64,000 bases of DNA from Mobula hypostoma (Eukaryota): NCBI RefSeq assembly GCF_963921235.1, contig NC_086097.1:147996001-148060000 (forward strand), in the 5' to 3' direction. This document shows, piece by piece, positions 4,846-49,451 of the stretch. How positions within the stretch are numbered: position 1 is the stretch's first letter; the number at the start of each line of letters is the position of its first letter. Both the position numbers and the translations under genes were made by a program. The notes under the pieces are model-generated. The model was not told where the DNA came from. It made no database searches and worked only from the letters and a program-made list of their open reading frames with translations.

Positions 4846-6014
4846 AAGGGGTCCCCAACCTTTTTTGCAGTGCAGACCGGTTTCATGTTGACAGTATTCT
4901 TGCGGACCAGCCGACCGGGGTGTGGGGGCGGGATGGTTGCCAACAGACAAGAGTGGCAGTCACATACGTTGCGTTTACCCAGAGAAAGACTACAATGACC
5001 ATGAAGCCTTGCGCGGGCACCAGTGCGCATGCGTGCACCTGCTGATTATTTTTCTACAAATTGATTTTGGCGATTCTGTTCGGGGGGGGGGTCGGGGGTG
5101 TCAATCACGACCGGAATATCGGTGATAAGTGGCTAATACACTCAATTTCGTTTCTAAAAGGCTTTATCTGACGAATTTAATGTTAAACACACAGCGCATA
5201 TTTTCCTCGCATGAATATAGTGATAAGTCAATTATCAGGGGAGCTTGAAGTAAGTGTTGAACGAACTTCCAGTAGAAGTGTCAGAAGCAGGTTTGATATT
5301 ATCATTTAAAGTTAAATTGGATAAGTATATGAACAGGAGGGTTATGGGCTGAGTGCAGGTCGGTGGGACGAGGTGAGAGTAGCGTTCGGCATGGACTAGA
5401 AGGGCAGAGATGACCTGTTTCCGTGCTGTAATTGTTATATGGTTATATAAGTCAATAGCATCATAACATTTTAAGTAACGTTTGGATATTAAACACAGCG
5501 CATATTTTCCCCGTATGAACATATAAAATCATTGCAACGCACCAATATCGCTGAATCAGTGGGAGCCCTGGTCTTGTTTCCCTGTAACAAGACGGTCCTA
5601 TCGAGGGGTGATGGGAGACAGCGATACTCAAAGGGGGGTTCTTTATGTCCAGTCTAATCCGCAATTTAGTTTTTGTTACATTCATCGCAGAGATATGTTG
5701 GAAATGGAAGCAACGTTTTCAGTGCTTTCATGACTGTCTCAGGATATTGAGCCTTGACTTTGATCCAGAATGCCGGCAGAGATGTTATGTCAAACAGACT
5801 TTTCAGCCCGCCATCATTTGCAAGCTCGAGGAGTTGATCTCCTTCCCGCGCTGACATGGACGATGCGCGCGTAGTGGCTCAACAGTGGGCGTGACAGGGA
5901 ATGAGGAAAGGTGCAGCTGACTCATATCGCCAAATAATATTGTTTCCTCGCGGCCCAGTAGCACATGCTCTGCGGCCCAGTACCGGTCCGCGGCCCGGTG
6001 GTTGGGGACCGCTG
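4846..6014. mobile_element. Non-autonomous hAT (Charlie/Buster-like) DNA transposon, copy 1
   Basis: TIRs (c/a)AGGGGTCCCCAACC...GGTTGGGGACCGCTG; 8-bp TSD CTTCAGAG at 4838-4845 and 6015-6022. Minus-strand transposase C-terminal remnant LLELANDGGLKSLFDITSLPAFWIKVKAQYPE..KALKTLLPFPTYLC / KTKLR.RLD. Confidence 0.92.
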
Positions 6015-6632
6015 CTTCAGAGGATAGTGAATCTCTAGAATTATTTGCGCTACATGTGGTGGAGACCACATCATTAGAAATATTTAAAGTGGTGATCGAT
6101 AAATTTTTCTAAGATCCAGGAATTGAAGGTTATGGGAAGCTGGCACAAAAGAGAAGCCAAGCCCTGCGTATATCAGCCACAACCATATTGAATGGGGTGG
6201 GGTTGGGATGCAGCCTTGAAGCATGATGTACTGTTTACTTTGTTGGGGAGTTCAGTGATATGGTCAAGGACAAGGTTCTGCAAGCAAATAACAAGAACTT
6301 GGGAATAAAATGACAATACAGAACCTTAAAAGTGGTAATCTTAGGATAACTACAAGTCTCAAGGGCAATTGGATATAAAAGTAGGAAGGTAACATAAATA
6401 AATGTGAGATTGAAAATGTGATGGAAGAGGGCATGACATCTCTGAGGCAAGACACTTGGGACAAATCTGGAGATGGTGGAACTTGGCACAAGTAGGTTGG
6501 AAAAATCAACAAGCCAGGAAACATCCCTGCGGGGAAGCTGTCTCAGTGCATTAAGGGAATTTGTCTTTAAAGAGTGAGAGGTAGAATTTATGTGAAAAGA
6601 AGGATGAAAGTTGGAAGATTGAACATGGAATA

Positions 6633-20277: not shown

Positions 20278-20422
20278 CAACACAGACACCTAGTGTAAGA
20301 CAATGGAGCGCCTTCATACAATGCTATCAACAATTGCATCCTCCAAATCTTAATTTTCATTGTAATATTCAAAAAGAGAAATAATGTATGAGATCATGAA
20401 AAGGCAACATAACTTTATTGGA

Positions 20423-20619
20423 ACAACACACACAAAAAATGCTAGTGAACGCAGCAGGTCAAGCAGTTCACTATCCCTTCTTTCAGTTCGTCCTGACGAA
20501 GGGTCCCGGCCCAAAACATCGACTGTACCTCTTCCTATAGATGCTGCCTGACCTATTGCGTTCACCAGCATTTTTTGTGTGTGTTGCTTGAATTTCCAGC
20601 ATCTGCAGATTTCCTCGTG
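20423..20619 (+). mobile_element. Short PLE terminal-repeat insertion with a 5' inverted segment
   Basis: Matches the 3' end of the PLE at 40533-44190; 20423-20466 is an inverted copy of about 20543-20586. 13-bp TSD taactttattgga / taacttcattgga. Confidence 0.88.
20489..20524 (+). ncRNA. Minimal hammerhead ribozyme motif, core mutated (GAAAC-GUC to AAAAC-AUC)
   Basis: cgtc-CTGACGA-agggtcccggccc-AAAAC-ATC-gact; both changes look like CpG decay. Confidence 0.6.
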
Positions 20620-22053
20620 TAACTTCATTGGACATGTGATTAGGAAAGAGGAGTTAGAATGCACGGTAATTATGGGAAAGATTGAAGGGAGGAAAGCACA
20701 AGGAAGACAAAGACAAATGATGATAGGGACAGCAGCCAGAGAACTGGAAATGAATACCAATGAATTGAACCACTTGACCCGAAACAGGAGTGTGTGGGCC
20801 ATGGCAGTCAAAGCTCAAACTGGGCATGGCACCTGATGATGATGATGAATATTCAAGACGACTCTTGATACCTTCGAATTCTTCATAATTCCTAACTTGT
20901 TCAAGTAGTGAAATCATTTCAGTTTCAATCCTAGCCATTTTTCGCATCTCCAAGCCTGAATGCTTTAAAACACTGTTTGCAAAACAGTTCTGAATTGTCT
21001 TTCTGCATATTTCCTACCAATTATCAGTGTCAAAAATCACTGCTTTTTGAACACAACCACACACAACTGATTCTATTATAAATTGTTCATTCTAAGCATT
21101 GTGTAAGGTCTAACGGCCATGCAAATACATGTGACTGACACTGGGCAACAGTCTCCTGCCCCAATTAAGCGGCATATTGTTCCAAATTAATGAAGGGAGT
21201 CCCGACTATTTTCTCAATCAGTTTTTTTGTTCTTTAAGAATTGGCCCAAATAAGTGGCTGCCCCGATTAACTGATGGCCCAATTAACCAGAATCCACTGT
21301 ATATCCTATCTCAGCATGATATATCTTCGTGATTTAACAGTGATTTGAATTGGAGCTCTAGTCAACTAATGGGAGACTAACTATCCATGCTATAGTGCTG
21401 TGTAAGATCACCAATGCTGGTCAATGGTCAGATGTCCTCATAAATGGTCAACAATTTTTCTTTAATTTTCCCCAGCATCATTTACTTGTCCTACCTTCAA
21501 ATTAATTTCAAACTATATACCCTGGCAATTTATAGGGTAAAATAGTTTATAATTTCTGCTAAACTGTATCATGACACATTTTTAACCATTTGGGAGAACT
21601 GACATAAATATGTTACTGATCCATGGCTGTGCACATGACTAAATTAATCATGCATTAACCACTATCTAGTAAAGGAAATTGCCGTGCAATAGTGAATGAT
21701 TGTTTGGTTGCATTACATGCACTGTTTAGCAGTAAGTAGTTTCTGATAAACAGCATAAATCTCCTTTTAACATGGCCTTTATCTCAAGTATGTTGGAATA
21801 CAAAATCAAGGTAATAGTGCTTCAGTTGCAAAGAGCCTTGGGCAAGCATTAGTCCATGTTAGTCTTGATATTAACTCATTAACATTTTAAGCTATTTTTC
21901 TAAATTGTGGGTTTAGTTTGCCTTATTTTATTTCTGTTCCCTTGAGTTCTGACAATTGATTCAAGGTATTATAGATGGTAAAGGATTTTATTTTTAGGGT
22001 AGTGAGAGAAGATCATTGTGGAATATAGGACAAGCAGACATAAAATTTGAGTT

Positions 22054-22293
22054 ACACACATCAAAGTTGCTGGTGAACGCAGCAGGCCAGGCAGCATCTG
22101 TAGGAAGCGGTGCAGTCAACGTTTCAGGCCGAGACCCTTCGTCAGGACTAACTGAAGGAAGAGTGAGTAAGGGATTTGAAAGTTGGAGGGGGAGGGGGAG
22201 ATCCAAAATGATAGGAGAAGACAGGAGGGGGAGGGATAGAGCCAAGAGCTGGACAGGTGATAGGCAAAAGGGGATACGAGAGGATCATGGGAC
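22054..22293 (-). mobile_element. Short PLE terminal-repeat insertion (240 bp)
   Basis: Nearly identical to 40566-40801; perfect 15-bp TSD cataaaatttgagtt at 22039-22053 and 22294-22308. Confidence 0.92.
22114..22149 (-). ncRNA. Minimal type I hammerhead ribozyme motif (GUU triplet)
   Basis: Minus strand AGTC-CTGACGA-AGGGTCTCGGCCT-GAAAC-GTT-GACT. Confidence 0.75.
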
Positions 22294-23599
22294 CATAAAA
22301 TTTGAGTTGACCATTTACAAGTAAAATCAAGGAGCACATGAGAGTTAATAGAAATTTATATTCTCCCTCGGCAGAGTCAATTGAATTTTTCAAGACACTG
22401 ATTTTGTGATGGGAATAAAGAAATTTAGATGTGAATATATGTCATCATATAAGCCAAAGTAAGGGAGATGCAAAGCAGTTGTGTGATTGTATTACCACTT
22501 TTGCATAAGTTTCTGGGTTAGTTAACACTGTCATTGAGGTTTGATGTAACAATTTTGTGTACTGTAGTGCTGTTTTCCTAGCATTGAGCTTGGCCTGATG
22601 TAATCAGTTGTGTAGCACCCAAAAAATAATCTCTGCCAATATTAAATAAATCAAGGTGATAAACAGTATTATCAGGAGCTTTTTCTCCAGCATTGTAGCC
22701 TGTCTGCTGCCATCTGCTCTCAATCTGCTACTAGCAACAGTGATCCAGCATCCGCTCCAGTTTATTAAGTTTGTAAATCAAGGTACAACTTTTTATTAAT
22801 CGAATATCATTCTGGGGAACAGGAACAACTCCAAACACCTCTTTTCCACAATGCATTTCTCCTCTTGGTCACTGTTTTGTCATAGCTGGAAGTTACTTTT
22901 GTGCCCAAAACTGTGAACTTCTCGTTGACTTTCCAACCCTCCATTCAGTGGTTTTCCTCTGCTCATTTTATCTTTTTGCTGCCAGCCAGTATTCCATATT
23001 CTTCTGTCTGTTCCCAATAACATGCTGTCATTAAACTCATTGCTTTCATGAAGTTCAGCAGTTGTTCTTTCAGATCCAAATTTTCTTACTGTCTTGATCA
23101 CTGTCTCTATAAATGCTTAAAACTAGAGATATTGACTTCAAAACATGAAAAATGCAGCTTAACTGTAGCAAAAAGTGAATAAATCTCTCAGCCTTTCAAT
23201 CCAATTCTTTTTCCATTTAAAGTTTTTGCCCATCACAGTTAGCGACTGAAAGCATTGGTTAATAGGCTGAACTAATTCTGGTATGAAATTAATGAAAAGA
23301 AAATTGGTCAGAGTTAAAACAAGCTACTAACTTCCCATTGCTTGATTTGTGTTACTGCCCAGAACACATTCTACTGTGCTAACGTTGAGGAAGTTGAGTT
23401 TATTCATTGTTCAAACAAATTAAATGTAAAATGTTGGATAACTACTAAATTTTTGAAATTATATGAGTAATCATTTACCTATTCACTATTGTATTGTGTG
23501 TTAGTGTACATTGTTTCTGGGTCATTCATACATAAGTCACATAGACTATATTTTAACATCTAATGTGTCAACTATGCACTTCTAGGCACTAGCCTTCCT

Positions 23600-25290: not shown

Positions 25291-27778
25291 TGCCTTCTTA
25301 TTCTAGCTTCTTCCCTCTTCTTTCCAGTTCAGGTGAAGGCTCTTGGACAAAAACATCAATTGTTTGTTTATTTCCATAGATACTTCTTAACTTGCTAAGT
25401 TATTTCACACTTTTGTCGATAGAATCTCTTGTGTTTATGAACAGCAAAAAAAGTCCCTTTCCCACCCTCCCATCCACCCATTCACACACAGAGACAGACC
25501 TCCAACGCCAGGACAGTCTTCCTCCAGGCCTCCAATCCTTGGCCCTGGACTCTCAGGTTCGCACACATTAGCCTCCACTTTGGACTCTGCCTCCAGACAC
25601 ACCATTCAGGCATTTGACATTTGTGCCTAGACCTTGGGATTCACTGATCAGGGGGACCTTATTACCTCAACATCTGGACCCACGTGGGCTTCTGACCTTG
25701 GTGACCTGGGACTTCCAACCCTTGTGACCTGGGTCCTCGTGACTCTTTACCTTCAGTCTTCGATCTTAAGTCTTCTACCTCTGGACATGCCGTGGACTGG
25801 ACTTCGATCTTCAGCTTTACTCCTCCGAACTTCACCAATGTCTTGCTGATAATTGGTTTGAAAGAGAAACTTGGAGCAAAGGTTATAGTCTAGAACCTTG
25901 GGAATGAGAATTCCACTTCACCTCATCATTCATTCTCCTCACAAATTCATTCTCTTCATTTTAAGATACCGATGTTATCTTTTTGCCCTTCAAATCTGCC
26001 AGCATGATCTCTTCAAAAGTTGTCTACATATGAAAAAATTTCAAACAAAAAAGAAAACAACTAACATCAAAATATGAGAGAGGAGAAATTCAAGCTTGAG
26101 AAAATGTGCCTGAGTCATCCTGGTTTGTGATAGGATACAAGTGTTCCAACCTTTTTTATACTGTAGACCAATACTATTGAGCAAGGGGTCCATGGCCCCC
26201 AGGATCAGGAACCCCTGGGTTAGAGGAATTTGGATGAAGGTAAAATTCATATAAAATTCAAGGTCAGTCAAGCATCAAGCCACAGCTACAACCTGTTGGT
26301 AGTAATTAAGCAGGCCTGCTAGATGTGGAGATAGCAAGTGTAATGGGAAAGGAAAAAAGCTTTTCCTTGAGTAGCTGACAGCAGATTTGATGTTGAATGT
26401 GGATTAGTGAAATGCATTAGTTAAATATGAATAGATATCTCATTGGGAGTAAGGATTTCACAGATAATCACAGAGTTGATGGACTTTGCTAATGGACGTA
26501 ATTTGTTAAATAGATTTGACATTGTAAATTTGCTTAAAGAATAATCATATCTGTATCATTTTACAGGTTGCTTTATTAAAGACTTGGAACATTGACTTTA
26601 CAAAGTTGGTTCTTAATTAAAAGAAATCTTACAATTGATGCTTTAACAATCTCTTATGGTGAGATTTGAAACTTTATAGCTCTAGGTCTGGTCTAGTGAA
26701 ATGCAGGCTGATAGAATTTTGCCTTCTTTTGAAGATGAAGGACTGGGTAAGGAAATGGATTTGAATCCTTTAAAATATAAAAACTGCTATTTAAGGTTAG
26801 TTATTATTTGAATGTTTCTTTAAGGATCATCAAACAAAATTCGATACTTAGTACACAAGAAGCTATGATTGTTGACAAAGGAAATAGAATAAGCTGTTTA
26901 GCCCCACATGCCTACTCCACCAGTCAATGAAATTATGGATGATTTATACTAACCCTCAAGTCAGATTCTTCATATATTATCATCAAAAGCAGAAGCAGAA
27001 AATGCTGGAATTATTCTCTGGGTCAGCCAAAATCTGTGGAAAAACGGAGCTTACACTTAATGTCCACGAGCCTTTAGGTAATCAACTGTCAAAACTGTAA
27101 AATTAGAAATTGATCTGAGCTTAAATGGTATTTACAGAAAAGCAACTCATTTCCAAGATTACATTTTTAAAAAGTGCTTTGTAAAAGTAGCAATGTGCAA
27201 AGATAATTTAGGAAAGTAGGTGGAAGTGAAAAGTGAATAACATCAGCAAAGTCTACAAAAGCATGGAAGGAAATGCAAAAAGGAGTGCCTAAAATTTATA
27301 AGATCCTTTCCAAAATTTACATATATCCAATTTTAAGAAAATTGCACCGATTTCTGAAATATTCTGTCTTTTGATATCTTAATTGGGTATACTCTTGGGG
27401 TTAGATGAAAATGGAAGATGGGACACTTCTGTAAGTGGCCTAAATCATTTCACTTCAGCTTGCTGCCCAGGCACTATACAAAACAGCATGCAGTCATGCC
27501 CCAATTTTCTTACGTATGCATTGTGCAAAGTCCCTGTGATAGCACAGTCACTCATAAAATTTATCATAGTTAACAGTCTATAGATAAATGTGTTAAAGCA
27601 CCAAGTATAAATAAGACTGAAGTACAAATGAACCATGATGAATGAAAGAACTAGATGACTTGCTCCTGTTCGAGTTTTTTTAATTATTTATATTTAGCAT
27701 TTATTACTATCACTAATTACACTTGAAAAAGAGACTATTAAGAACCAACCACATTGATGGGCTTGGAGTGACATATAG

Positions 27779-29001
27779 CAGCAGTCCCCAACCACCGGGC
27801 CACGGACCGGTACCGCGCCGCAAAGCATGTGCTACTGGGCTGTGAGGAAACAATATGATTTGGCGATAGGAGTCAGCTGCACCTTTCCTCATTCCCTGTC
27901 ACGGCCACTGTTGAGCTTGAACGCACACGAGGTCATTACCCACGCGTCATCCATGTCAGCGCGGGAAGGAGATCAACTCCTCGAGCTTGCAAATGACGGC
28001 GGGCTGAAAAGTATGTTTGACATAACATCTCTGCCAGTATTCCAGATCAAAGTCAAGGGTGAATATCCTGAGATAGCCACGAAAGCACTGAAAACTTTGC
28101 TTCCATTTCCAACATATCTCTGCAATGAATGCAAAGAAAACTAAATTGCGGAATAGACTTGACATAAGGAACCCCCTTCGAGTATCGCTGTCTCCCATCA
28201 CCCCTCGATGGCACCGTCTTGCTGCAGGGAAACAAGTATTCAGCCCAGGACTCCCACTGATTCAGCGATATTGGTGTGTTGCAATGATTGTATATGTTCA
28301 TACAGGGAAAGTATGTGCTGCGTGTTTAATATTCAAACGTTACTTGAAATGTTATGATGCTATTGACTTATAAGTGACTTTTATAACCATATAACAGTTA
28401 CAGCACGGAAACAGACCATCTCTGCCCTTCTAGTCCGTGCCGAACTCTACTCTCACCTAGTCCCACCGACCTGCACTCAGCCCATAACCCTCCATTCCTT
28501 TCCTGTCCATATACCTATCCAATTTTTCTTTAAATGATAATATCGAACCTGCTTCTGTCAGTTCTACTGGAAGTTCATTCAACACTTACTTCAAGCTCTC
28601 CTGTCCTCCCCCGATAATTGACTTATCACTATATTCATGCGAGGAAAATATGCGCTGTGTGTTTAATATTAAGTTCGTTAGATAAATCCTTTTAGAAATG
28701 AAACTGAGTGTATTAGGCACTTATCACCCATATTCCGGCCGTGATTTAACCCCCCTCACCCCCGAATAGAATCGCCAAAAACGATTTGTAGGGGAAATCG
28801 GCACGTACAAGTATGCGCACTGGTGCCCGCGCCAGGCTTCATGGTCATTGTAGTCTTTCTCGGGGTAAACACAACGTATTTGACTGCTACTCTTGTCCGT
28901 TGGCAACCCAACCCCAACCCCCACCCCCCAGGTCGGCCAGTACGCAAGAATATTGTCAATAATAAACCGGTCCGCGTTGCAAAAAAGGTTGGGGACCCCT
29001 G
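27779..29001. mobile_element. Non-autonomous hAT (Charlie/Buster-like), copy 2, opposite orientation to copies 1 and 3
   Basis: TIRs CAGCAGTCCCCAACC / GGTTGGGGACCCCTG; perfect 8-bp TSD ACATATAG (27771-27778, 29002-29009); transposase remnant in ORFs 27827..28144 and 28125..28373. Confidence 0.94.
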
Positions 29002-29836: not shown

Positions 29837-31022
29837 CAGAGGTCCCCAAACTTTTTTGCAACACGGCCAACCCGGGGGTTGGGGGGGGCGTGGGTAGGGT
29901 TGCCAACGGACAAGAGTAGCAGTCAAATATGTTGTGTTTACCTCGAGAAAGACTACAATGACCATGAAGCCTTGCACGAGCACCAGTGCGCATGCGTGAC
30001 TTGTGCATGTGCATACATGCTGATTTTTTTCCTACAAATCGTTTTTGGCGATTCTGTTCAGTGGGGGGGGGGTAATCACGACCGGAATATAGGTGATAAG
30101 TGGCTAATACACTCAATTTCGTTTCTAAAAGGGTTTATTTAATGAATTTAATATTAAACACACACCGCATATTTTCCTCGCATGAATATAGTGATAAGTC
30201 AATTATCGGGGGAAGACAGGGGAGCTTGAAGTAAGTGTTGAACGAACTTCCAGTACAAGTGGTAGAGGCAGGTTTGATATTATCATTTAAAGAAACATTG
30301 GATAGGTATATGGACAGGAAAGGAATGGAGGGTTATAGGCTGAGTGCAAGTCGATGGGACTAGGTGAGAGTAGCGTTTGGCACGGACTAGAAGGGCAGAG
30401 ATGGCCTGTTTCCGTGCAGTAAATGTTATATGGTTATATAAGTCACTTATAAGTCAATAGCATCATAACATTTTAAGTAACGTTTGGATGTTAAACACGC
30501 AGCACATATTTTCCCCGTATGAACGTATAAAATCATTGCAACACACCAATATCGCTGAATCAGTGGGAGTCCTGGGCTGAATACTTGTTTCCCTGCAACA
30601 AGACGGTGCCATCGAGGGGTGATAGGAGACAGCGATACTCGAAGGGGGTTCCTTATGTCCAGTCTATTCGGCAATTTAGTTTACGTAGCATTCATTGCAG
30701 AGATATGTTGGAAATGGAAATAACGTTTTCAGTGCTTTCATGGCTATCTCAGGATATTTAGCCTTGACTTTGATCCAGAATGCCAGCAGAGATGCTATGT
30801 CAAACATACTTTTCAGCCCGCCGTCAGTTGCAAGCTCGAGGAGTTGATCTCCTTCCCGCGCTGACATGGATGACGCACGGGTAATGACCTCGCGTGCGTT
30901 CAAGCTCAACAGTGGGTGTGACAGAGAATGAGGAAAGGTGCAGCTGACTCATATCGCCAAATCATATCTTTCCTCACGGCCCGGTAGCACATGCTTTGCG
31001 GCCCGGTGGTTGGGGACAGCTG
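29837..31022. mobile_element. Non-autonomous hAT (Charlie/Buster-like), copy 3
   Basis: TIRs CAGAGGTCCCCAAAC / GGTTGGGGACAGCTG; perfect 8-bp TSD GTCTAGAG (29829-29836, 31023-31030), fitting the Charlie NTCTAGAN preference. Confidence 0.94.
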
Positions 31023-35500: not shown

Positions 35501-36362
35501 GGGAGATTTAGACCAGTTAGAAGAGTGGGCTGAAAGTTGGCAAATGCAGTTTAATGCTGATAAGTGTGAGGTGCTACATTTTGGTAGGACTAATAAAAAT
35601 AGGACATACATGGTAAATGGTAGGGCATTGAAGAATGCAGTAGAACAGAGGGATCTAGGAATAATGGTGCATAGTTCCCTGAAGGTGGAATCTCATGTTG
35701 TGGATAGGGTGGTGAAGAAAGCTTTTGGTATGCTGGCCTTTATAAATCAGAGCATTGAGTATAGGAGTTGGAATGTAATGTTGAAATTGTACAAGGCATT
35801 GGTAAGTCCAAATTTGGAGTATTGTGTACAGTTCTGGTCACCGAATTATAGAAAAGATGTCAACAAAATAGAGAGAGTACAGAGAAGATTTACTAGAATG
35901 TTACCTGGGTTTCAGCACCTAAGTTACAGAGAAAGGTTGAACAAGTTGGGTCTTTATTCTTCGGAGCATAGAAGGTTGAGGGGGGACTTGATAAATGTAC
36001 TTAAAATTATGAAGGGGATGGATAGAGTTGGCGTAGATAGGCTTTTTACATTGAGAGTAGGGGAGATTCAAACAAGAGGACATGAGTTGAGAATTGGGGG
36101 GCAAAAGTTTAGGGGTAACACGAGGGGGAACTTCTTTACTCAGAGAGTGGTAGCTGTGTGGAACGAGCTTCCAGCAGAAGTGGTAGAGGCAGGTTCGATA
36201 TTGTCATTTAAAGTAAAATTGGATAGCTATATGGAATGGAAAGGAATGGAGGGTTATGGGCTGAGTGCAGGTCGGTGGGACTAGGTGAGAGTAAGCATTC
36301 GGCATGGACTAGAAGGGCCGAGATGGCCTGTTTCTATGCTGTAATTGTTATATTTGTTATAT
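32545..36362 (+). mobile_element. Near full-length CR1 LINE: ORF1 (zinc finger and SGNH esterase) and ORF2 (APE and RT), pseudogenised
   Basis: ORF1 from about 32560: VECSVCSMWEV...YTCKRCIQLQLL, RAVVIGDSIVRGTD, DGLHLNWRG. ORF2 pieces: YFNARSIVRKVDEL, ISETWL, YYRPPN, IVGDFNFP, 610-aa ORF 34452..36284. Tail (TTGTTATA)-like repeats. Several stops, frameshifts and a deletion near 35030. Confidence 0.96.
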
Positions 36363-38990: not shown

Positions 38991-39198
38991 CAGGGGTCCC
39001 CAACCTTTTGCGCACTGCGGACCGGTTTAATATTGATGATATTCTTGCGGACCGGCCAACGGGGTGGGGGGGCGGTGTTCAAGTTCAACAGTATGTGACA
39101 GGGAATGAGGAAAGGTGCAGCTGATTCATATCACCAAATCATATCGTTTCTGCGTGGCCCGGTAGCACATGCTCGCTAAAGGTGGTTGGGGACCACTG
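38991..39198. mobile_element. Internally deleted 208-bp MITE of the same hAT family
   Basis: TIRs CAGGGGTCCCCAACC / GGTTGGGGACCACTG; 8-bp TSD TAGGATAC / TAGTATAC (7/8). Confidence 0.88.
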
Positions 39199-39340
39199 TA
39201 GTATACCATAACCATTAATTCAAATATCAACATTAACTGCACATACACAAGGAAATCTGCAGATGCTGGAATTTCAAGCAACACACATCAAAGTTGCTGG
39301 TAAACGCAGCAGGCCAGGCAGCATCTCCAGGAAGAGGTAC

Positions 39341-39376
39341 AGTCAACGTATCGGGCCGAAACCCTTCATCAGGACT
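39341..39376 (-). ncRNA. Minimal hammerhead motif, core mutated (GAAAC to GAUAC)
   Basis: Minus strand AGTC-CTGATGA-AGGGTTTCGGCCC-GATAC-GTT-GACT. Confidence 0.6.
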
Positions 39377-40166
39377 AACTGAAAGAAGAGCTAGTGAGAG
39401 ATTTGAAAGTGGGAGGGGGAGATCCGAAATGATAAGAGAAGACAGGAGGGGGAGGGATGGAGCCAAGAGCTGGACAGTTGATTGGCAAAAGGGATATGAG
39501 AGGATCATGGGACAGGAGGCCTAGGGAGAAAGAAAAAGGGGAGGGGGGGAAAAACCCAGAGGATGGGCAAGGGGTATAGTGAGAGGGACAGAGGGAGAAA
39601 AAGGAGAAAGAAAAAGAATGTGTGTATATAAATAAAATAACAGATGGGGTATGAGGGGGAAGTGGGGCATTAACAGAAGTTTTGAAGTCAATGTTCATGC
39701 CATCAGGTTGGAGGCTACCCAGATAGAATATAAGGTGTTGTTCCTCCAACCTGAGTGTGGCTTCATCTTGACAGTAGAGGAGGCCGTGGATAGACATATC
39801 GGAATGGGATCTCCCAGTAGCCTCCAACCTGATGGCATGAACATCGATTTCTCAAACTTCCACTAATGCCCCTCCTCCCCCTCGTACCCCATCTGTTATT
39901 ATTTATTTATATACGCACATTCTTTTTCTCCCTGTCCTTTTTCTCCCTCTGTCTCTCTCACTATACCCCTTGCCCATCCTCTGGGCTTCCCCTCTCCCCC
40001 TTTTTTTTCTCCCTAGGCCTCCTGTCCCATGATCCTCTCATATCCCTTTTTGCCAATCAACTGTCCAGCTCTTGGCTCCATCCCTCCCCCTCCTGTCTTC
40101 TCCTATCATTTTGGATCTCCCCTCCCCCTCCCAATTTCAAATCTCTTACTAGCTCTTCTTTCAGTT

Positions 40167-40202
40167 AGTCCTGACGAAGGGTCTCGGCCCGAAACGTCGA
40201 CT
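40167..40202 (+). ncRNA. Minimal type I hammerhead ribozyme, intact core, sense to ZC3H3
   Basis: AGTC-CTGACGA-AGGGTCTCGGCCC-GAAAC-GTC-GACT. Stem I AGUC/GACU, stem II GGGU/GCCC, palindromic ACGU in place of stem III; predicted cleavage after C40198. Confidence 0.85.
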
Positions 40203-40627
40203 GTACCTCTTCCTAGAGATGCTGCCTGGCCTGCTGTGTTCACCAGCAACTTTTATGTGTGTTGCTTGAAATTCCATCATCTTTCCTCGTGTTTACAACT
40301 TTTCTTAAATAAGGGGCCCAAAACTGCTCATAATACTCCATGTTTGGTCTGACCAACGCCTGTGGCATGGTAGCACTATGGTTAGCACAATGTTTTACAG
40401 CATCACTGACTTGAGTTCAATTCCTGCTGCTGCCTGTGAGGAATTTATATGTTCTCCTCATGATTGCATCAGTTTCCTCCAGGTGCTTCGGTTTCCTCCC
40501 ACAGTCCAAAAACATGCAGGTTAATAGGTTAACAACAGGAATTCTGCAGATGCTGGAAATTCAAGCAACACACATCAAAGTTGCTGGTGAACGCAGCAGG
40601 CCAAGCAGCATCTATAGGAAGAGGCGC

Positions 40628-40663
40628 AGTCGACGTTTCAGGCCGAGACCCTTCGTCAGGACT
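40628..40663 (-). ncRNA. Minimal type I hammerhead ribozyme in the PLE 3' repeat, intact core
   Basis: Minus strand AGTC-CTGACGA-AGGGTCTCGGCCT-GAAAC-GTC-GACT; predicted cleavage after the C at 40632. Confidence 0.85.
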
Positions 40664-40949
40664 AACTGAAGGAAGAGTGAATAAGGGATTTGAAAGGGGG
40701 AGGGGGAGATGCAAAATGATAGGGGAAGACAGGAGGGGGAGGGATAGAGCCGAGAGCTGGACAGGTGATAGGCAAAAGGGGATACGAGAGGATCATGGGA
40801 CAGGAGGTCCGGGAAGAAAGACGGGGGGGGGTGACCCAGAGGATGGGCAAGAGGTATATTCAGAGGGACAGAGGGAGAAAAAGGAGAGTGAGAGAAAGAA
40901 TGTGTGCATAAAAATGAGTAACAGATGGGGTACGAGGGGGAGGTGGGGC

Positions 40950-43900
40950 CTAGCGGAAGTTAGAGAAGTCAATGTTCATGCCATCAGGTTGGAGGCTACC
41001 CAGACGGAATATAAGGTGTTGTTCCTCCAACCTGAGTGTGGCTTCATCTTTACAGTAGAGGAGGCCGTGGATAGACATGTCAGAATGGGAATGGGATGTG
41101 GAATTAAAATGTGTGGCCACTGGGAGATCCTGCTTTCTCTGGCGGACAGAGCGTAGATGTTCAGCAAAGCGGTCTCCCAGTCTGCGTCGGGTCTCACCAA
41201 TATATAAAAGGCCACATCGGGAGCACCGGACGCAGTATATCACCCCAGTCGACTCACAGGTGAAGTGATGCCTCACCTGGAAGGACTGTTTGGGGCCCTG
41301 AATGGTGGTAAGGGAAGAAGTGTAAGGGCATGTGTAGCACTTGTTCCGCTTACACGGATAAGTTCCAGGAGGGAGATCAGTGGGGAGGGATGGGGGGGAC
41401 GAATGGACAAGGGAGTTGTGTAGGGAGCGATCCCTGCGGAATGCAGAGAGAGGGCGGGAGGGAAAGATGTGCTTAGTGGTGGGATCCCGTTGGAGGTGGC
41501 GGAAGTTACGGAGAATAATATGTTGGACCCGGAGGCTGGTGGGGTGGTAGGTGAGGACCAGGGGAACCCTATTCCTAGTGGGGTGGCGGGAGGATGGAGT
41601 GAGAGCAGATGTACGTGAAATGGGGGAGATGCGTTTAAGAGCAGAGTTGATAGTGGAGGAAGGGAAGCCCCTTTCTTTAAAAAATGAAGACATCTCCCTC
41701 GTCCTAGAATGAAAAGACTTATCCTGAGAGCAGATGCGGCGGAGACGGAGGAATTGCGAAAAGGGGATGGCGTTTTTGCAAGAGACAGGGTGAGAAGAGG
41801 AATAGTCCAGATAGCTGTGAGAGTCAGTAGGCTTATAGTAGACATCAGTGGATAAGCTGTCTCCAGAGACAGAGACAGAAAGATCTAGAAAGGGGAGGGA
41901 GGTGTCGGAAATGGACCAGGTAAACTTGAGGGCAGGGTGAAAGTTGGAGGCAAAGTTAATAAAGTCAACGAGTTCTGCATGCGTGCAGGAAGCAGCGCCA
42001 ATGCAGTCGTCGATGTAGCGAAGGAAAAGTGGAGGACAGATACCAGAATAGGCTCGGAACATAGATTGTTCCACAAACCCAACAAAAAGGCAGGCATAGC
42101 TAGGACCCATACGGGTGCCCATAGCTACACCTTTAGTTTGGAGGAAATGGGAGGAGCAAAAGGAGAAATCATTAAGAGTAAGGACTAATTCCGCTAGACG
42201 GAGCAGAGTGGTGGTAGAGGGGAACTGATTAGGTCTGGAATCCAAAAAGAAGCGTAGAGCTTTGAGACCTTCCTGATGGGGGATGCAAGTATATAAGGAC
42301 TGGACATCCATGGTGAAAATAAAGCGGTGGGGGCCAGGGAACTTAAAATCATCGAAAAGTTTAAGAGCGTGAGAAGTGTCACGAACATAGGTCGGAAGGG
42401 ATTGAACAAGGGGTGATAAAACAGTGTCGAGGTATGCAGAAACGAGTTCGGTGGGGCAGGAGCAAGCTGAGACAATAGGTCGGCCAGGACAGGCAGGTTT
42501 GTGGATCTTGGGTAGGAGGTAGAAACGGGAAGTGCGGGGTGTGGGAACTATAAGGTTGGTAGCAGTGGATGGGAGATCCCCTGAGCGGATAAAGTCGTTG
42601 ATAGTGTGGGAGACAATGGCCTGGTGCTCCTTAGTGGGGTCACGATCGATGGTAAATAAGAGGAGGTATCCGCGAGTTGTCGCTGTGCCTCGGCAAGGTA
42701 GAGGTCAGTACGCCAGACTACAACAGCACCTCCCTTATCAGTGGGTTTAATAATAATGTTAAGATTAGTGCGGAGGGAGTGGAGAGCAGAGCGTTCTGAA
42801 GGAGTGAGGTTGGAATGGGGACAAGGTGCGGTGAAGTCGAGACTGTTGATGTCCCGTCGGCAGTTGGCAATAAAGAGATCCAGAGCAGGCAGAAGACCAG
42901 AGCGGGGTGTCCATGAAGAAGAGGAGGGTTGAAGACGGGAGAAGGGGTCATCGGTGGGGGTGGAAGAGTCCTTGCCGAAGAAGTAGGCTCGGAGACGGAG
43001 ACGGCGGAAGAAAAGTTCCGCATCGTGGCGAACACGGAACTCGCTGAGGTGTGGGCGAAGGGGGACAAACGTGAGGCCCTTACTGAGAACAGAGCGTTCT
43101 GCCTCCGACAGTTGATGGTCGGAGGGGATGGTAAAGACCCGGCACGGATGAGAGCTGGGATCAGAGGGGGGAGGGGGGAGGCTGGGGGTGTCAGTGGAGA
43201 GGGGAGGGTTGGGGTGAGAGAAAGATGGAGCCTCTGAGGGCCCAGGAGCTGACGGTGGGATCTGAGGAAGACGGGGCTGCGGAGTGGTGGTGGGGGAAGG
43301 GGAGACGGGAGTCACAACAGCAGCACATAAAGACCCGGCCTGGTGTTCAAGGCTGGAGTTGCAGTTGGTGGTTGCGTAATCACTTCGAATGTGTCCATGG
43401 TCGTTGCTGGAGTCCGGGTTTTGAATATGTCCTGAGGTGTTGGAGCCGCCGAGATCAATGGCAGGGGCCGCAATTGAAAGTTCATGCCTGCTAGCGTCGG
43501 GGCCGGCAGGCTCTGGAGTCCGTAGATGTAAGATCTTGCGATCTTTGCCTAACATGACAAAGTCAAAAAAATGGCGATTGCAGGCGTGAGTCCGACGGAG
43601 GATGAAATAACGGGTAGGACCATTACAGACGGCGAAGAAAGTGTCCCGAAGGTGTGGAAGGGTCTGGGATAGGGACACCAAGTACCTCCTCATGGCGGAG
43701 AGCGTCGCCTTCAGAGCTTGACGGGAGAAGCGGCGAGAGGCAGAGTCAATAAAATGTGAGTACCTGGGATCCTCAGAAGGTCCAAATTGAGAGGCTTGGA
43801 AACGAATCCTAAAGCCAACTGGAGTAAGTTGGTGACGGAGGCACGTTCCAAGAAAGGATACATGGCTGTGATAGCGAGTTTGAGTCAAAGTGTGGTCGAA

Positions 43901-43999
43901 AAGTTGAAGAGCCGAAGAAATTACAGATGGGGAGCAGTGAGAGATGGTTTCACTGAACTCCCGTCGAAGAGAGGATCTAAACTTCTTCGGTGTAGGCAT
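40950..43999 (-). pseudogene. PLE polyprotein: N-terminal domain, reverse transcriptase, Cys linker and GIY-YIG endonuclease; about 1016 aa if one frameshift near 42650 is repaired
   Basis: ATG at 43999 (MPTPKKF), LSKGLTFVP, IIKPTDKGGAVVV. After the frameshift I translated an open frame DRDPTKEH...FYLLPKIHK...GRPIVS...FTMDVQSLYT, continuing GVAMGT, FLRYIDD, LPFLD, CKRNKCYTC, GVIYCVRCSRCGLLYIGET, RFAEH. Confidence 0.93.
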
Positions 44000-44133
44000 C
44001 ACCGGAAGAGGCTTCGCAGTAGTGAATTTAAACGCAAACAACAGGAATTCTGCAGATGCTGGAAATTCAAGCAACACACATCAAAGTTGCTGGTGAACGC
44101 AGCAGGCCAAGCAGCATCTATAGGAAGAGGCGC

Positions 44134-44169
44134 AGTTGACGTTTCAGGCCGAGACCCTTCGTCAGGACT
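44134..44169 (-). ncRNA. Minimal type I hammerhead ribozyme in the PLE 5' repeat (intact core, one stem I mismatch)
   Basis: Minus strand AGTC-CTGACGA-AGGGTCTCGGCCT-GAAAC-GTC-AACT; predicted cleavage after the C at 44138. Confidence 0.8.
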
Positions 44170-44429
44170 AACTGAAGGAAGAGTGAGTAACAGGTTAATA
44201 GGTTAATTGGTCGTTGTCAGTTGTCCCGTGATTAGGCTATGGTTAAAACAAGTGTTGCGTGGCAATGCGACTCAAAGGCCAGAACAGCCAATTTTGCACT
44301 GTATCTCAATAAATTAAGAAAATTATAAAGCCTCAGCATTACATTATTGCTCTTATATTTTGGTCCTCTCAAAATGAATGCTAACATAGTTTGTAACTTG
44401 CAACATGTTGCCCATTATCATTCTATATA

Positions 44430-45037: not shown

Positions 45038-45861
45038 CTAAACATTTAAATTGGTCAAAGTAGATTTTAGCCTTTGATCCGTTGACTGTTATCCCACAAT
45101 GAACCTCTAGCAGCTACCATTAACCATGATGCTAACTCAAATCCTTAACCATACTACTTCCTTATACTTAAAGATTTATTATTTTTACATTACCTATTTA
45201 GATTTTCAATTGTCATTTATACAGAGGTTTTCATTCTGCTATGGATCAGCCATCTGAACACCTTGATCAGAATCCAGCTTATTATACTTACTTCCAGAGT
45301 TTCAATTATTCTATACATAAACTATCTGACATTCTCAATTATATTCTAGCTTGTAATGAGCATCCAAGTGTTCAATATTCTAGTTATAAACAACCTCAAT
45401 TACTTATTTAAATTTTAGTGTGTAACTCATTCATAGATGTCTATTTTAATAGAAAGCATCCCATAATTCCTAGCTGTTGCTGCTCATTGATTTCTAGAAT
45501 TTTTTTTCATTCCCTTTTAATGGAAACACTTCTGTTTTTAACCCCTACTGATTTTAAGCTTACTATAAATTAGAAGTGGCCCCAGCAGAAAACCGCCGGA
45601 GTTTTTTTTTTAAAAAGCAACAAGTTGTTCTTGTGAAACTGGAAAAATTTAATTAACAGTTCTCACTGTGCTAGGTGAACCCCACTATTCAGCATTTGTG
45701 ATGATTTATGATCTCTAAGGTGACTGTCAGTTTTTATGGGCTGAATTGATCCTGCAGGAGTTTGATATCTGAAATTGAGAACATAGAAAAGTAATGGAGC
45801 AAGACACATCAAAGTTGCTGGTGAACGCAGCAGGCCAGGCAGCATCTATAGGAAGAGGTAC

Positions 45862-45897
45862 AGTCGACGTTTCAGGCCGAGACCCTTCGTCAGGACT
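45862..45897 (-). ncRNA. Minimal type I hammerhead ribozyme, intact core
   Basis: Minus strand AGTC-CTGACGA-AGGGTCTCGGCCT-GAAAC-GTC-GACT. Confidence 0.85.
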
Positions 45898-47398
45898 AAC
45901 TGAAAGAAGAGCTAGTAAGAGATTTGAAAGTGGGAGGGGGAAGGGGAGATCCAAAATGATAGGAGAAGACAGGAGGGGCAGGGATGGAGCCAAGAGCTGG
46001 ACAGTTGATTGGCAAAAGGGATATGAGAGGATCATGGGACAGGAGGCCTAAGGAGAAAGAAAAGGGGGAGGGGGGGAAACCCAGAGGATGGGCAAGAGGT
46101 ATGTTGAGAGGGACAGAGGAAGAAAAAGGAGAGAGAAAAAAAGAATGTAGTCTGGATGTAGGGTGTAAGTTGAATCAAGAGTTAAAATTGGCATGTCGCA
46201 AAGGTAATGCTACAGTTGTTATGGGGGATTTCAAAATGCAGATAGACTGGAGGAATCAAGTTGGTACTGGACCCCAAGAAAGGGAGTTTGTGGAGTCCCT
46301 CCGAGATGGATTCTTAAAACAGCTTGTACTGGAGCCTACCAGAGAGAACGCAATTCTAGATTTAGTGTTGTGCAATGAACCAGATTTGATCAGGGACCTT
46401 GAGGTAAAGGAGGTAGTGACCATAATATGGTAAGTTTTAATCTACAATTTGAGAGGGAGAAGGGAAACTCGGAAGTGTCAGTATTACAGTTGAACAAAGG
46501 GAACTATGGTGCTATGAGGGAGGAGCTGGCCAACGTTCAATGGAACAATGCCCTAGCAGGGATGACAGTGGAGAACAGCAATGGCAAGTGTTTCTGGGAA
46601 TAATGCGGAAGGTGCAGGATCAATTCATTCCAAAGAGGAAGAAAGATCCTAAGGGGAGTAAGGGGAGGCCGTGGCTGACAAGGGAAGTAATGGACAGTAT
46701 AAAATAAAAGAGAGGAAGTATATTATAGCAACGATGAGTGGGACACCGGAGTATTGGGAAACTTTTAAAGAGCAACAGAAGGTAACTAAAAAGGCAAAAC
46801 GCGGAGAAAAAATGAGGTACGAAGGTAAACTAGCCAATAATATAAAGGAGGATAGTAAAAGCTTCTTTAGGTATGTGAAAAGGAAAAAAACAGTTAGGCC
46901 CAAAATTAGGCCCTTGAAGACAGAAACGGGTGAATTTATTATGGGGAACAAGGAAATGGCAGACGAGTTGATCAGGTACTTTTAGGGAAGACACAGACAA
47001 TCTCCCAGATATAATAGTGGCCAAAGGACCTAGGGTAATGGATGAACTGAAGGAAATTTATATTAGGCAGGAAATGGTGTTGGATAGACTGTTGAGTCTG
47101 AAGGCTGGTATTCCGTTTGGGTATCCTCCAACCTGATGACATGAACATTGACTTCTCAAACTTCCGCTAATGCCCCACCTCCGCCTCGTACCCCATCCGT
47201 TAGTTATTTATATACCCACATTCTTGTTCTCTCTCTCCTTTTTCTCCCTAGGTCTCCTGTCCCATGATCCTCTCATATCCCTTTTGCCAATCACCTGTCC
47301 AGCTCTTGGCTCCATCCCTCCCCCTCCTGTCTTCTCCTATCATTTTGGATCTCCCCCCCCTCCCACTTTCAAATCTCTTACTAGCTCTTCTTTCGGTT

Positions 47399-47434
47399 GG
47401 TCGTGACGAAGGGTCTCAGCCCGAAACGTCAACT
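47399..47434 (+). ncRNA. Minimal hammerhead motif, core mutated (CUGA to GUGA)
   Basis: ggtc-GTGACGA-agggtctcagccc-GAAAC-GTC-aact. Confidence 0.6.
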
Positions 47435-48357
47435 GTACCTCTTCCTAGAGATGCTGCCTGGCCTGCTGCGTTCACCAGCAGCTTTTATGTGTGTTGCTTG
47501 AAATTCCAGCATCTGCAGATTTCCTCGTGTTTGTGAAAAGTAATGGACTCCACTGTGAAATTCCACTTTTGTAATCATCTAATATTTAGGATGGCAAAAC
47601 ATTCTTTAACCAGGCTTGCGCTTCCAAATTTGTCTAATCATTCTCAGCAGTGTATTGTTTCAGTCATTTCTTCAAAGCCCACAGAGCACAAAAAAATAGG
47701 AATAAAGCACAATTGCTGCTCAAATCTGCCCATTGAACCTCACATCATGACTAACAGTATCAAGTTGGCCTGCAGGCTTCAGGCTCAGAGATGTCTGCAA
47801 CTGTTTTACTTTTACAATATACTGCCACCTATCAATGATCTGTGGAAGGAAGTATATTGGTTCTATGCATTTTGAGAATCACTAAGATCCCCCAGCCTAA
47901 ATTGGCAGCCATGTTTCCATGTTGTCGGGCCCTTGGAAGGAGCAAATCAACTCTTGCATTTGTTTTTTATTCACAGTCTCTATTGCCTCCAGTTTTGATC
48001 TCTAAAGTTTACTCCCAGTTTGATGTATTTCTCTCTTCTTCTCGATATCATTTTTTAGCATCTTCTTGACATCTTAAAATTGTCAGTTTTGTTGTGGTTC
48101 TTTTGAGTTAATTGACTTAAAGCCCAATAGTTTAAATTGTAATTATCTGGAAATCAACCTACTAAATGCAGGGTTTTGCTAGGAAAGAATACAGAGGAAG
48201 GGAATTTGTGCAATGTTTTGCATTCTGCTTTTGTATGTTTGCTGACAGAACGTCAGGAATTTATCCTCCAAATGTGAAGGCACTCCTTTATGAGTTTTGG
48301 ATATATATGAATAATCTCAAGACTATTTTATGACATGTAACAAATAATCTTTTTCAG

Positions 48358-48551
48358 TGCAAGAAGAAGCACACACTCATCTGTCCAGAATTCTCCAAGA
48401 CTGGGAACTGCACACAGGGCTCCAAATGCAAACTGCAGCACAGACAGCAAAAAAGCCATAAGCAAAAGCATGCTTTTGAAGCAACTCAGGGTGGAACAAC
48501 AGATGAGGGCACAGTTTCAAAGCGGGTCATGCTTGCAGGCAATACAGAAAG
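48358..48551 (+). CDS. ZC3H3: ZC3H3 coding exon (completes the split CCCH finger, encodes the last CCCH finger and a linker)
   Basis: Acceptor ctttttcag ends at 48357; phase 0 join to the previous exon gives ...PLGAK|CKKKHTLICPEFSKTGNCTQGSKCKLQHRQQKSHKQKHAFEATQGGTTDEGTVSKRVMLAGNTE. Matches ZC3H3 CKKKHTLLCPDF..G.C..G..C.L.H. Donor AG|GTAATG at 48551/48552 (phase 2). Confidence 0.93.
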
Positions 48552-49451
48552 GTAATGCATGGTCATCACTATGGAAGTTTGACAGAAAATTTACATTTAT
48601 TGGTAATATGACACTATAATTTCTTGATATATGAAAGGTGTGAATTCTGGAAAATATTTCATTATGAATTAAATTCAGTTCAATTAAATAAAATTTTGTA
48701 AACTGTAAAGGCTGAATGAGAGGCATTAAGTGTTTTTCTGTACAATGTGTTCCTATGTGCAGAGTGTGGTGTGATGTTTGTTACAGTGAAAGAACACTTC
48801 ATGAATTAAAAATGGATATCTAAAGAGTCAGCAATGTCACAGTAAAAATTACTAAATCAAATTTTGTACAATAAGGTATTACAGTACTTTAAAGAAAATT
48901 ATACCTGCACATCCAGTGTGGTTAATAGTGCTTTTTTTGCGATAGAGTCACAGGGACCAAGAAAGTCTTTGGCTATGGTAAATTAATTGATGTTAGCTGA
49001 GATGGCAATTGTTTTGCCTCGATTTGTCAGCTGGCTCCTTGAGCCAGAAAGATGTAAAAGAACAAACAGGATTTCAGTTTCTGGCCATCAAATAATCAAT
49101 GCTGACAAGTGTGTGAGCATTAGTTAAGTCTAAACTTGGCCAAGTTGTCCTCAAATACATCTCAAATATCAGTGTTTAATGGTGAAGTTGCATGTTTTGT
49201 TTATGTATACTTGACCTTTGACTGAATTCTGGTACATTGCAGAGTAATATAGGAAGAGAACAACCTAAGATCATTGGACCTTGAAGCCATCATCTCATTG
49301 ATTGTGTATGGATCAAATGATCCTGTACGTGGGATCATATAATAATTATGTGGCATCCAAAAAGTGTTATACTTAAAATGAAATTAAATGCTTGCTTGTG
49401 TCAGTTTTTTTGGGATTTCTTTGGGAACATTATTTTCTCAATCTTTTACAG

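Follow-up and report, generated by a model that had tools for sequence, protein, structure and literature searches.

Can the ends of a Penelope-like element (PLE) carry unrelated DNA into a new site in a vertebrate host? This question is raised by a composite unit in the 64,000-nt stretch of DNA that was analyzed as a whole (the window), in which two copies of a 13-bp repeat enclose, in this order, a minus-strand PLE 3' end that lacks the tail, an internal LINE ORF2 piece of 959 bp and a plus-strand PLE 3' end that has the tail, so that both PLE ends face outwards (Table 1).

Table 1. Features of the composite unit, in window coordinates.
Feature	Position	Strand	Basis or remark
TSD, left copy, 13 bp	45786..45798	.	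exact match to 47535-47547
Left arm, inverted 5'-truncated PLE pLTR, 350 bp, tailless class	45799..46148	-	alignment with eight other window PLE ends
Minimal hammerhead motif, intact core (CTGACGA ... GAAAC GTC)	45861..45899	-	motif parse; layout fits min-HHR of PMC4209133
Left inner junction, 2-nt microhomology (GT) common to PLE arm and LINE	46147..46148	.	PLE copies and LINE contigs
Cargo, internal piece of high-copy CR1-type (presumed label) LINE ORF2	46149..47107	+	959 bp; profile, tblastn and Atlas matches
Right inner junction, microhomology 2 nt observed (TA), 3 nt inferred	47108..47110	.	PLE consensus and LINE continuation
Right arm, 5'-truncated PLE 3' end, 426 bp, tailed	47109..47534	+	alignment with window PLE ends
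Minimal hammerhead motif, C3G in core, predicted inactive	47397..47435	+	motif parse
TSD, right copy, 13 bp	47535..47547	.	exact match to 45786-45798

The 13-mer GAAAAGTAATGGA was sought throughout the window on both strands, and it was found at the two ends of the unit with no further copy on either strand, which confirmed both coordinates of the perfect direct repeat described in an earlier note on this DNA. With the base composition of the window, the chance of a 13-nt match at both element ends is 2e-8, and that of a TSD-like match is about 3e-6 when 5 nt of slack is allowed per side. When flanking repeats were compared for 11 end pairs, repeats longer than 7 nt appeared in 3/11, namely the unit (13), the element at 40533-44190 (16) and the PLE end at 22054-22293 (15). 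In the same test, no flanking repeat longer than 6 nt was present around the left arm, the right arm or the cargo singly, so the arms lie within one TSD instead of having separate ones, again as the note had it. The target-site duplication of the unit is 13 bp, exact and at an AT-rich site, and the unit is real and cleanly bounded.

The length of this TSD is like that of the other PLE insertions here, another point that stood up, as two of these have TSDs of 16 bp (40517/44191) and 15 bp (22039/22294), and a third, of 13 bp (20410/20620), contains a single mismatch and was recognized by reading the printed sequence. An AAT/ATT word occurs in all four PLE TSDs, compared with 44% of background 14-mers, and this may lend slight support to a target preference of the PLE. 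The insertion with the 15-bp TSD, at 22039-22308, is a tailless 5'-truncated PLE end of 240 bp, and its TSD is perfect.

For both arms, the match is to the pLTR of a full-length element that encodes RT and GIY-YIG and lies at 40533-44190. The 584-aa frame of this element matched RVT_1 at E=0.00026 and GIY-YIG at E=0.00048, both below the Pfam cut-off. As judged from these sequence matches, the arms derive from an endonuclease-bearing PLE with RT plus GIY-YIG at the C terminus, to which the Penelope/Poseidon label would apply on the basis of domain order. With its TSD of 16 bp, the full-length element spans 40517-44206; it is young, lies on the minus strand in partial tandem, and its 5' and 3' repeats differ at 2/154 sites. 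Its two stop-free frames, 44080-42551 (510 aa) and 42704-40953 (584 aa), overlap in different frames, and the frame change could be either a mutation or a programmed shift.

For comparison with the locus, we used four of 24 listed sequencing runs, one each of organisms A, B, C and D (none of those listed is registered as RNA, which is no guide to expression), and the matches listed from these four runs are 15 of 1270 joints, 24 of 5089 loose ends and 32 of 333,481 pieces. The left arm ends about 36 nt short of the full PLE 3' end. In the right arm, the last GIY-YIG codons are followed by a pLTR that has lost about 59 bp internally and then by the tail, and contigs from other loci, among the 24 of 5089 loose ends listed, diverge from it after 47533. 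Alignment separates the nine PLE ends in the window into two classes: three are tailless and end at columns 461-464, and six are tailed and end at columns 496-501. The unit thus has an inverted pLTR arrangement with the tail at one end, where the left arm is tailless and the right arm tailed, about 36 columns apart.

A miniature inverted PLE pair at 20410-20632 consists of a TSD, a tailless inverted arm, a tailed arm and a TSD, with no cargo; the last letters of its TSD (13 bp, one mismatch) are TGGA, as in the composite unit. Since this pair has the same frame without cargo and the end classes fit known PLE ends, the outer frame of the unit is an ordinary, textbook inverted-pLTR PLE insertion. 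In another inverted PLE pair, at 39243-40294, both arms are tailed and no TSD was found around the pair; the turn lies at about 39810-39823, seemingly with a short internal jump, and the right end adjoins an apparent LINE fragment.

Both ends had been described as ribozyme-bearing. Each arm does contain a hammerhead motif, but the core is intact in the left arm only, whereas that of the right arm carries C3G and is also altered in stem I. The right hammerhead is predicted to be inactive because C3G abolished cleavage of the Anolis PLE ribozyme, as given in the accessible text of PMC11167929. With Rfam, neither hammerhead was detected at gathering score or at E up to 10, where one chance snoRNA match was the only result, and in single-strand folding the hammerhead fold was not that of lowest energy, with z-scores of -0.5 to 0.6. 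Minimal PLE hammerheads are thought to act as dimers according to the accessible part of PMC4209133, and the failure of the monomer to take up the fold is in line with this. Hammerhead cleavage was dispensable for insertion in vitro in the accessible account of PMC11167929. We also considered whether the host intron had been purged of sense-strand hammerheads, and dropped the idea as one of three plus-strand copies has an intact core.

Of the 280 columns that both arms cover, 19 differ between them. At seven of these 19, both alleles occur in other copies in the window; two of the seven lie in a homopolymer beside a deletion, two are CpG sites, and three transversions remain (46005/47294, 45848/47448 and 45810/47486). 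The claim that the arms differ at several diagnostic sites was borne out. Alleles common to both arms but absent from other copies number 0 in 280 columns, while the three other arm pairs in the window have 4 in 44, 3 in 461 and 4 in 152 columns. Because the arms share no private alleles, unlike the other three pairs, and differ at three transversions, they probably came from two different source copies, as judged by a comparison of nine PLE copies from one window. Private changes amount to 1.8% and 3.2% in the arms.

The cargo covers the end of the APE endonuclease plus the linker, with no RT domain and no 3' end. Its endonuclease part matched Pfam PF14529 at E=0.0012, below the cut-off, and gave 0.96 to the PF14529 cluster in the Atlas; by tblastn, the cargo protein matched three other LINE regions in the window. 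The layout of an APE endonuclease followed by a linker is supported by the PF14529 match and by tblastn to these regions, and we take the LINE to be a CR1. The cargo stops just short of a conserved pre-RT motif seen in two distant LINE copies in the window, so its earlier description as an internal ORF2 piece without a 3' tail holds. Its sense is that of the right, tailed arm.

Four frameshifts interrupt the cargo. Small deletions had been reported, and three of the four changes are deletions (near 46405, 1 bp at 46704 and 14 bp at 46982), but the other is a 2-bp insertion at 46571. None of its 317 codons is a nonsense codon, for which the probability is 0.34 at 3% divergence and 0.055 at 8%, and a cargo free of stops fits an age like that of the arms. 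The final 16 nt of the cargo contain no AAT/ATT word (background 44%), which weakly speaks against these nucleotides being a donor TSD. The cargo is dead repeat DNA.

The LINE family of the cargo is very high-copy, at a depth of 1e5 in all four runs, and the window holds no close copy of the cargo. Among the 40 of 536 differences listed, there are at least 12 sites at which the cargo disagrees with 98.9% or more of the family depth in organism A. At the private 14-bp deletion, the depth was 10.2 in A, about that of the flanks, and 0 in B and D, where zero depth is uninformative since the own allele of A is also missing at 46723. As the depth in A is near flank depth, it hints at one copy with this deletion in that organism.

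At the left inner junction, PLE copies match up to 46148 and LINE contigs from other loci align from 46146-46147. At the right one, the PLE consensus before 47109 was taken from the loose ends (24 of 5089 listed) and the copies in the window, and the LINE continuation was inferred from the two distant LINE copies in the window. Microhomology of 2-3 nt, as at these joints, fits deletion or end-joining equally well.

The outer junctions were then viewed in other organisms. Contigs of organism A cover both flanks without a difference and reach 28 and 25 letters into the arms, and those of organism B cover both flanks and reach 29 and 26 letters, with 27 differences in 1863 letters of flank (1.4%). 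These overlaps in A and B fall below the 31-letter bridging rule. Since the own contigs of A stop in the same way, B appears to be a filled site, a reading made on overlaps of less than 31 letters and for the outer junctions, not the interior. If B is filled, the insertion would be old and predate the split of A and B, as both outer junctions are present in B contigs, and this would be in line with the private changes of the arms. Among the 15 of 1270 joints listed, there was no empty-site joint (45798-to-47548), and the listed contigs of C and D stop short of the TSD. No donor junction or sibling copy was found among the listed joints, loose ends and pieces. Of the 15 listed joints, 14 run from left-arm to right-arm positions with sides of fewer than 30 letters, and we read these as cargo-less fold-backs at other loci; in some of the listed joints, short fillers of up to 26 letters lie between the arm pieces. 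Near the unit, organism B is without 372 bp at 47765-48136, where one of its contigs joins across, and this gap is a deletion in B because contigs of C and D carry parts of the segment.

The earlier note had held that the unit arrived in one PLE-driven event. A single frame made by the PLE is well supported, because there is one TSD, the ends lie at two known PLE start points and there is no inner TSD. That the LINE piece arrived in the same event as the arms is the likeliest reading of the sequences, but not a proven one. In all, we consider a single PLE event that carried the LINE piece the best reading and a probable one. Under this reading, the unit would result from a single integration by a Penelope/Poseidon-type RT-GIY-YIG protein, whose endonuclease would cut both strands at an AT-rich site with an offset of 13 bp. 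The cDNA of the right arm would be primed by one of the cut ends on a PLE RNA, from its tailed start point, and that of the left arm by the other cut end on another PLE copy, from the tailless one; such two-strand priming has an in vitro precedent in the Anolis PLE. The cDNA from the tailed start would comprise 426 nt of PLE end and then 959 nt of sense-strand LINE, and it would be joined to the 350-nt left cDNA via the 2-nt microhomology. Two routes could have brought in the LINE sequence: the RT may have switched templates to a LINE RNA, or it may have read through the transcript of a donor in which a LINE copy already contained a truncated PLE end. We give these two routes about even odds: a template jump onto a LINE RNA predicts the sense orientation and the unbroken codons that are observed, and if the donor transcript held a LINE flanked by two PLE copies, both source copies would be accounted for in one RNA. 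A broader proposal, that the PLE RT jumped between unrelated retrotransposon RNAs (two PLE copies and a LINE mRNA), does so routinely here and makes PLE ends a general shuttle for foreign RNA, is possible and, in our view, doubtful.

Several observations argue for one event over its rivals. The TSD is exact at the outer ends and none is found around the inner parts; the two end classes about 36 nt apart match the start sites and the two-strand priming described in the accessible text of PMC11167929; and foreign sequence between pLTRs in one TSD has a rotifer precedent in the accessible account of PMC3846280. The cargo has the same sense as the tailed arm and is without the 3' end that a LINE needs in order to insert itself, and the arms share none of the private alleles sought in 280 columns. 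The frame also occurs without cargo, at 20410-20632 and in 14 of the 15 listed joints. Independent PLE insertions on either side of a resident LINE, with the 13-bp match due to chance or an unrelated duplication, would agree with the 19/280 differences and the subfamily-type sites between the arms. Yet neither arm has a TSD of its own and the chance of the match is about 3e-6, and since both outer junctions are in contigs of two organisms (A and B), we regard this explanation, together with an assembly artefact, as highly improbable.

Against the one-event reading, no empty site, donor junction or sibling was among the listed matches, joints of 2-3 nt fit deletion and end-joining equally well, and deletions are common at this locus: the right arm has lost about 59 bp, the cargo 14 bp and the flank of B 372 bp. 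The unit may instead have formed in two steps, in which an inverted PLE pair was followed by the later insertion of a long LINE, and a deletion then took the RT and 3' end of the LINE and some of the PLE. In favor of this, the unit and its surroundings show many microhomology-type deletions, the window is rich in LINE fragments, and frames without cargo are common. The LINE would, however, have had to reach the endonuclease domain, as only three such regions elsewhere in the window do, and to land in a small target before losing its entire RT and 3' end, and the zero private shared alleles of the arms, against those of the other three pairs, would be left unexplained; we thus hold two steps to be unlikely. 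Palindromes are unstable, and the center of an inverted pair may instead have broken and been patched by copying in LINE cDNA or DNA, in which case the PLE was no carrier. A cargo with neither LINE end, inner junctions with just 2-3 nt of microhomology and the fillers of up to 26 letters between arm pieces at other loci would all suit such a patch. Such fillers may equally arise in integration, though, and a simple fold-back does not predict arms from different source copies, so a patched break seems quite unlikely to us.

If co-insertion is true, the unit is a vertebrate case of cargo carrying by a PLE, which we otherwise found documented only in a rotifer; a literature search by title and start of abstract, with most subscription papers and supplements outside its scope, found no vertebrate case. 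Its base-resolved junctions bear on whether the PLE RT jumps templates and on the way in which cDNA primed from one target strand is joined to that primed from the other. Among other retrotransposons, L1 twin priming, transduction and template-switch chimeras produce an inverted 5' segment, microhomology joints and foreign sequence within one TSD. The unit is like L1 twin priming in these respects. In twin priming, however, the segments are adjacent parts of one RNA, whereas the arms of the unit overlap in element coordinates, come from what appear to be different source copies and have no poly(A) tail.

That PLE ends can carry unrelated sequence, as the earlier note put it, is right as a general claim but already published for a rotifer. 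Penelope-mediated mobilization of unrelated DNA was described in Adineta vaga (Arkhipova, Yushenova, Rodriguez 2013, PMC3846280), where the accessible text describes an NRPS gene inside a TSD of 8 bp and, in 'a few other cases', non-coding cargo enclosed by solo pLTRs. The unit resembles the Adineta vaga cases in that foreign sequence is framed by pLTRs within one TSD, with an inverted pLTR at one end and an optional tail at one end; as for the NRPS gene, unrelated DNA lies between pLTRs inside one TSD. The NRPS gene is located between two direct pLTRs plus an inverted one, and an empty site was found (PMC3846280, accessible text), whereas the unit has no upstream direct pLTR, a 1-kb dead LINE piece, a vertebrate host and no empty site among the listed joints. 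Transduction by L1 and PLE is also summarized as known in the accessible part of PMC6431247. PLE cargo carrying as such is thus already known (rotifer, 2013), and a vertebrate example would be added here if the LINE piece was co-inserted.

In insertions of endonuclease-bearing PLEs, as described in the accessible text of Craig et al. 2021 (PMC8557442), the 5' end carries a copy that is inverted and 5'-truncated, just one end has a tail, of 30-40 bp, and the pLTR contains a hammerhead. The unit is the same in its inverted truncated copy, one-end tail and pLTR hammerhead, but a LINE piece lies between its arms where the canonical insertions, in that text, have PLE sequence only. For the Poseidon element PAc of Anolis carolinensis, the accessible text of Frangieh et al. 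2024 (PMC11167929) has the tail defined by two RT start sites, and the PAc protein, which shows a preference for an ATT word, cleaves the two target strands and extends each of them. PAc is like the unit in its two end classes, the two-strand extension proposed here, ATT-type target and a hammerhead that is unneeded in vitro; the tests in the accessible part of that study did not extend to capture of a foreign template. PMC6155905 and bioRxiv 10.64898/2026.07.22.740005, as far as their accessible parts go, deal with PLE hammerheads and retrozymes and not with cargo.

The unit had been placed about 810 bp upstream of a ZC3H3 exon. A CCCH zinc finger exon at 48358-48553 does start 811 bp past the right TSD and is conserved in 4/4 organisms compared (A-D), but comparisons with the Atlas and the PDB confirmed the CCCH finger and not the gene name, so that ZC3H3 is what we take the gene to be. 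The locus itself is dead repeat DNA in an intron and shows no sign of function. Elsewhere in the window, a non-coding element of about 1.1 kb is present as two inverted copies (27777-29000 and 29865-31017) with 90% likeness; a third copy lies at 4847-6016, shorter pieces occur at 36156 and at 38991, and from its sequence the element looks like a non-autonomous DNA transposon.
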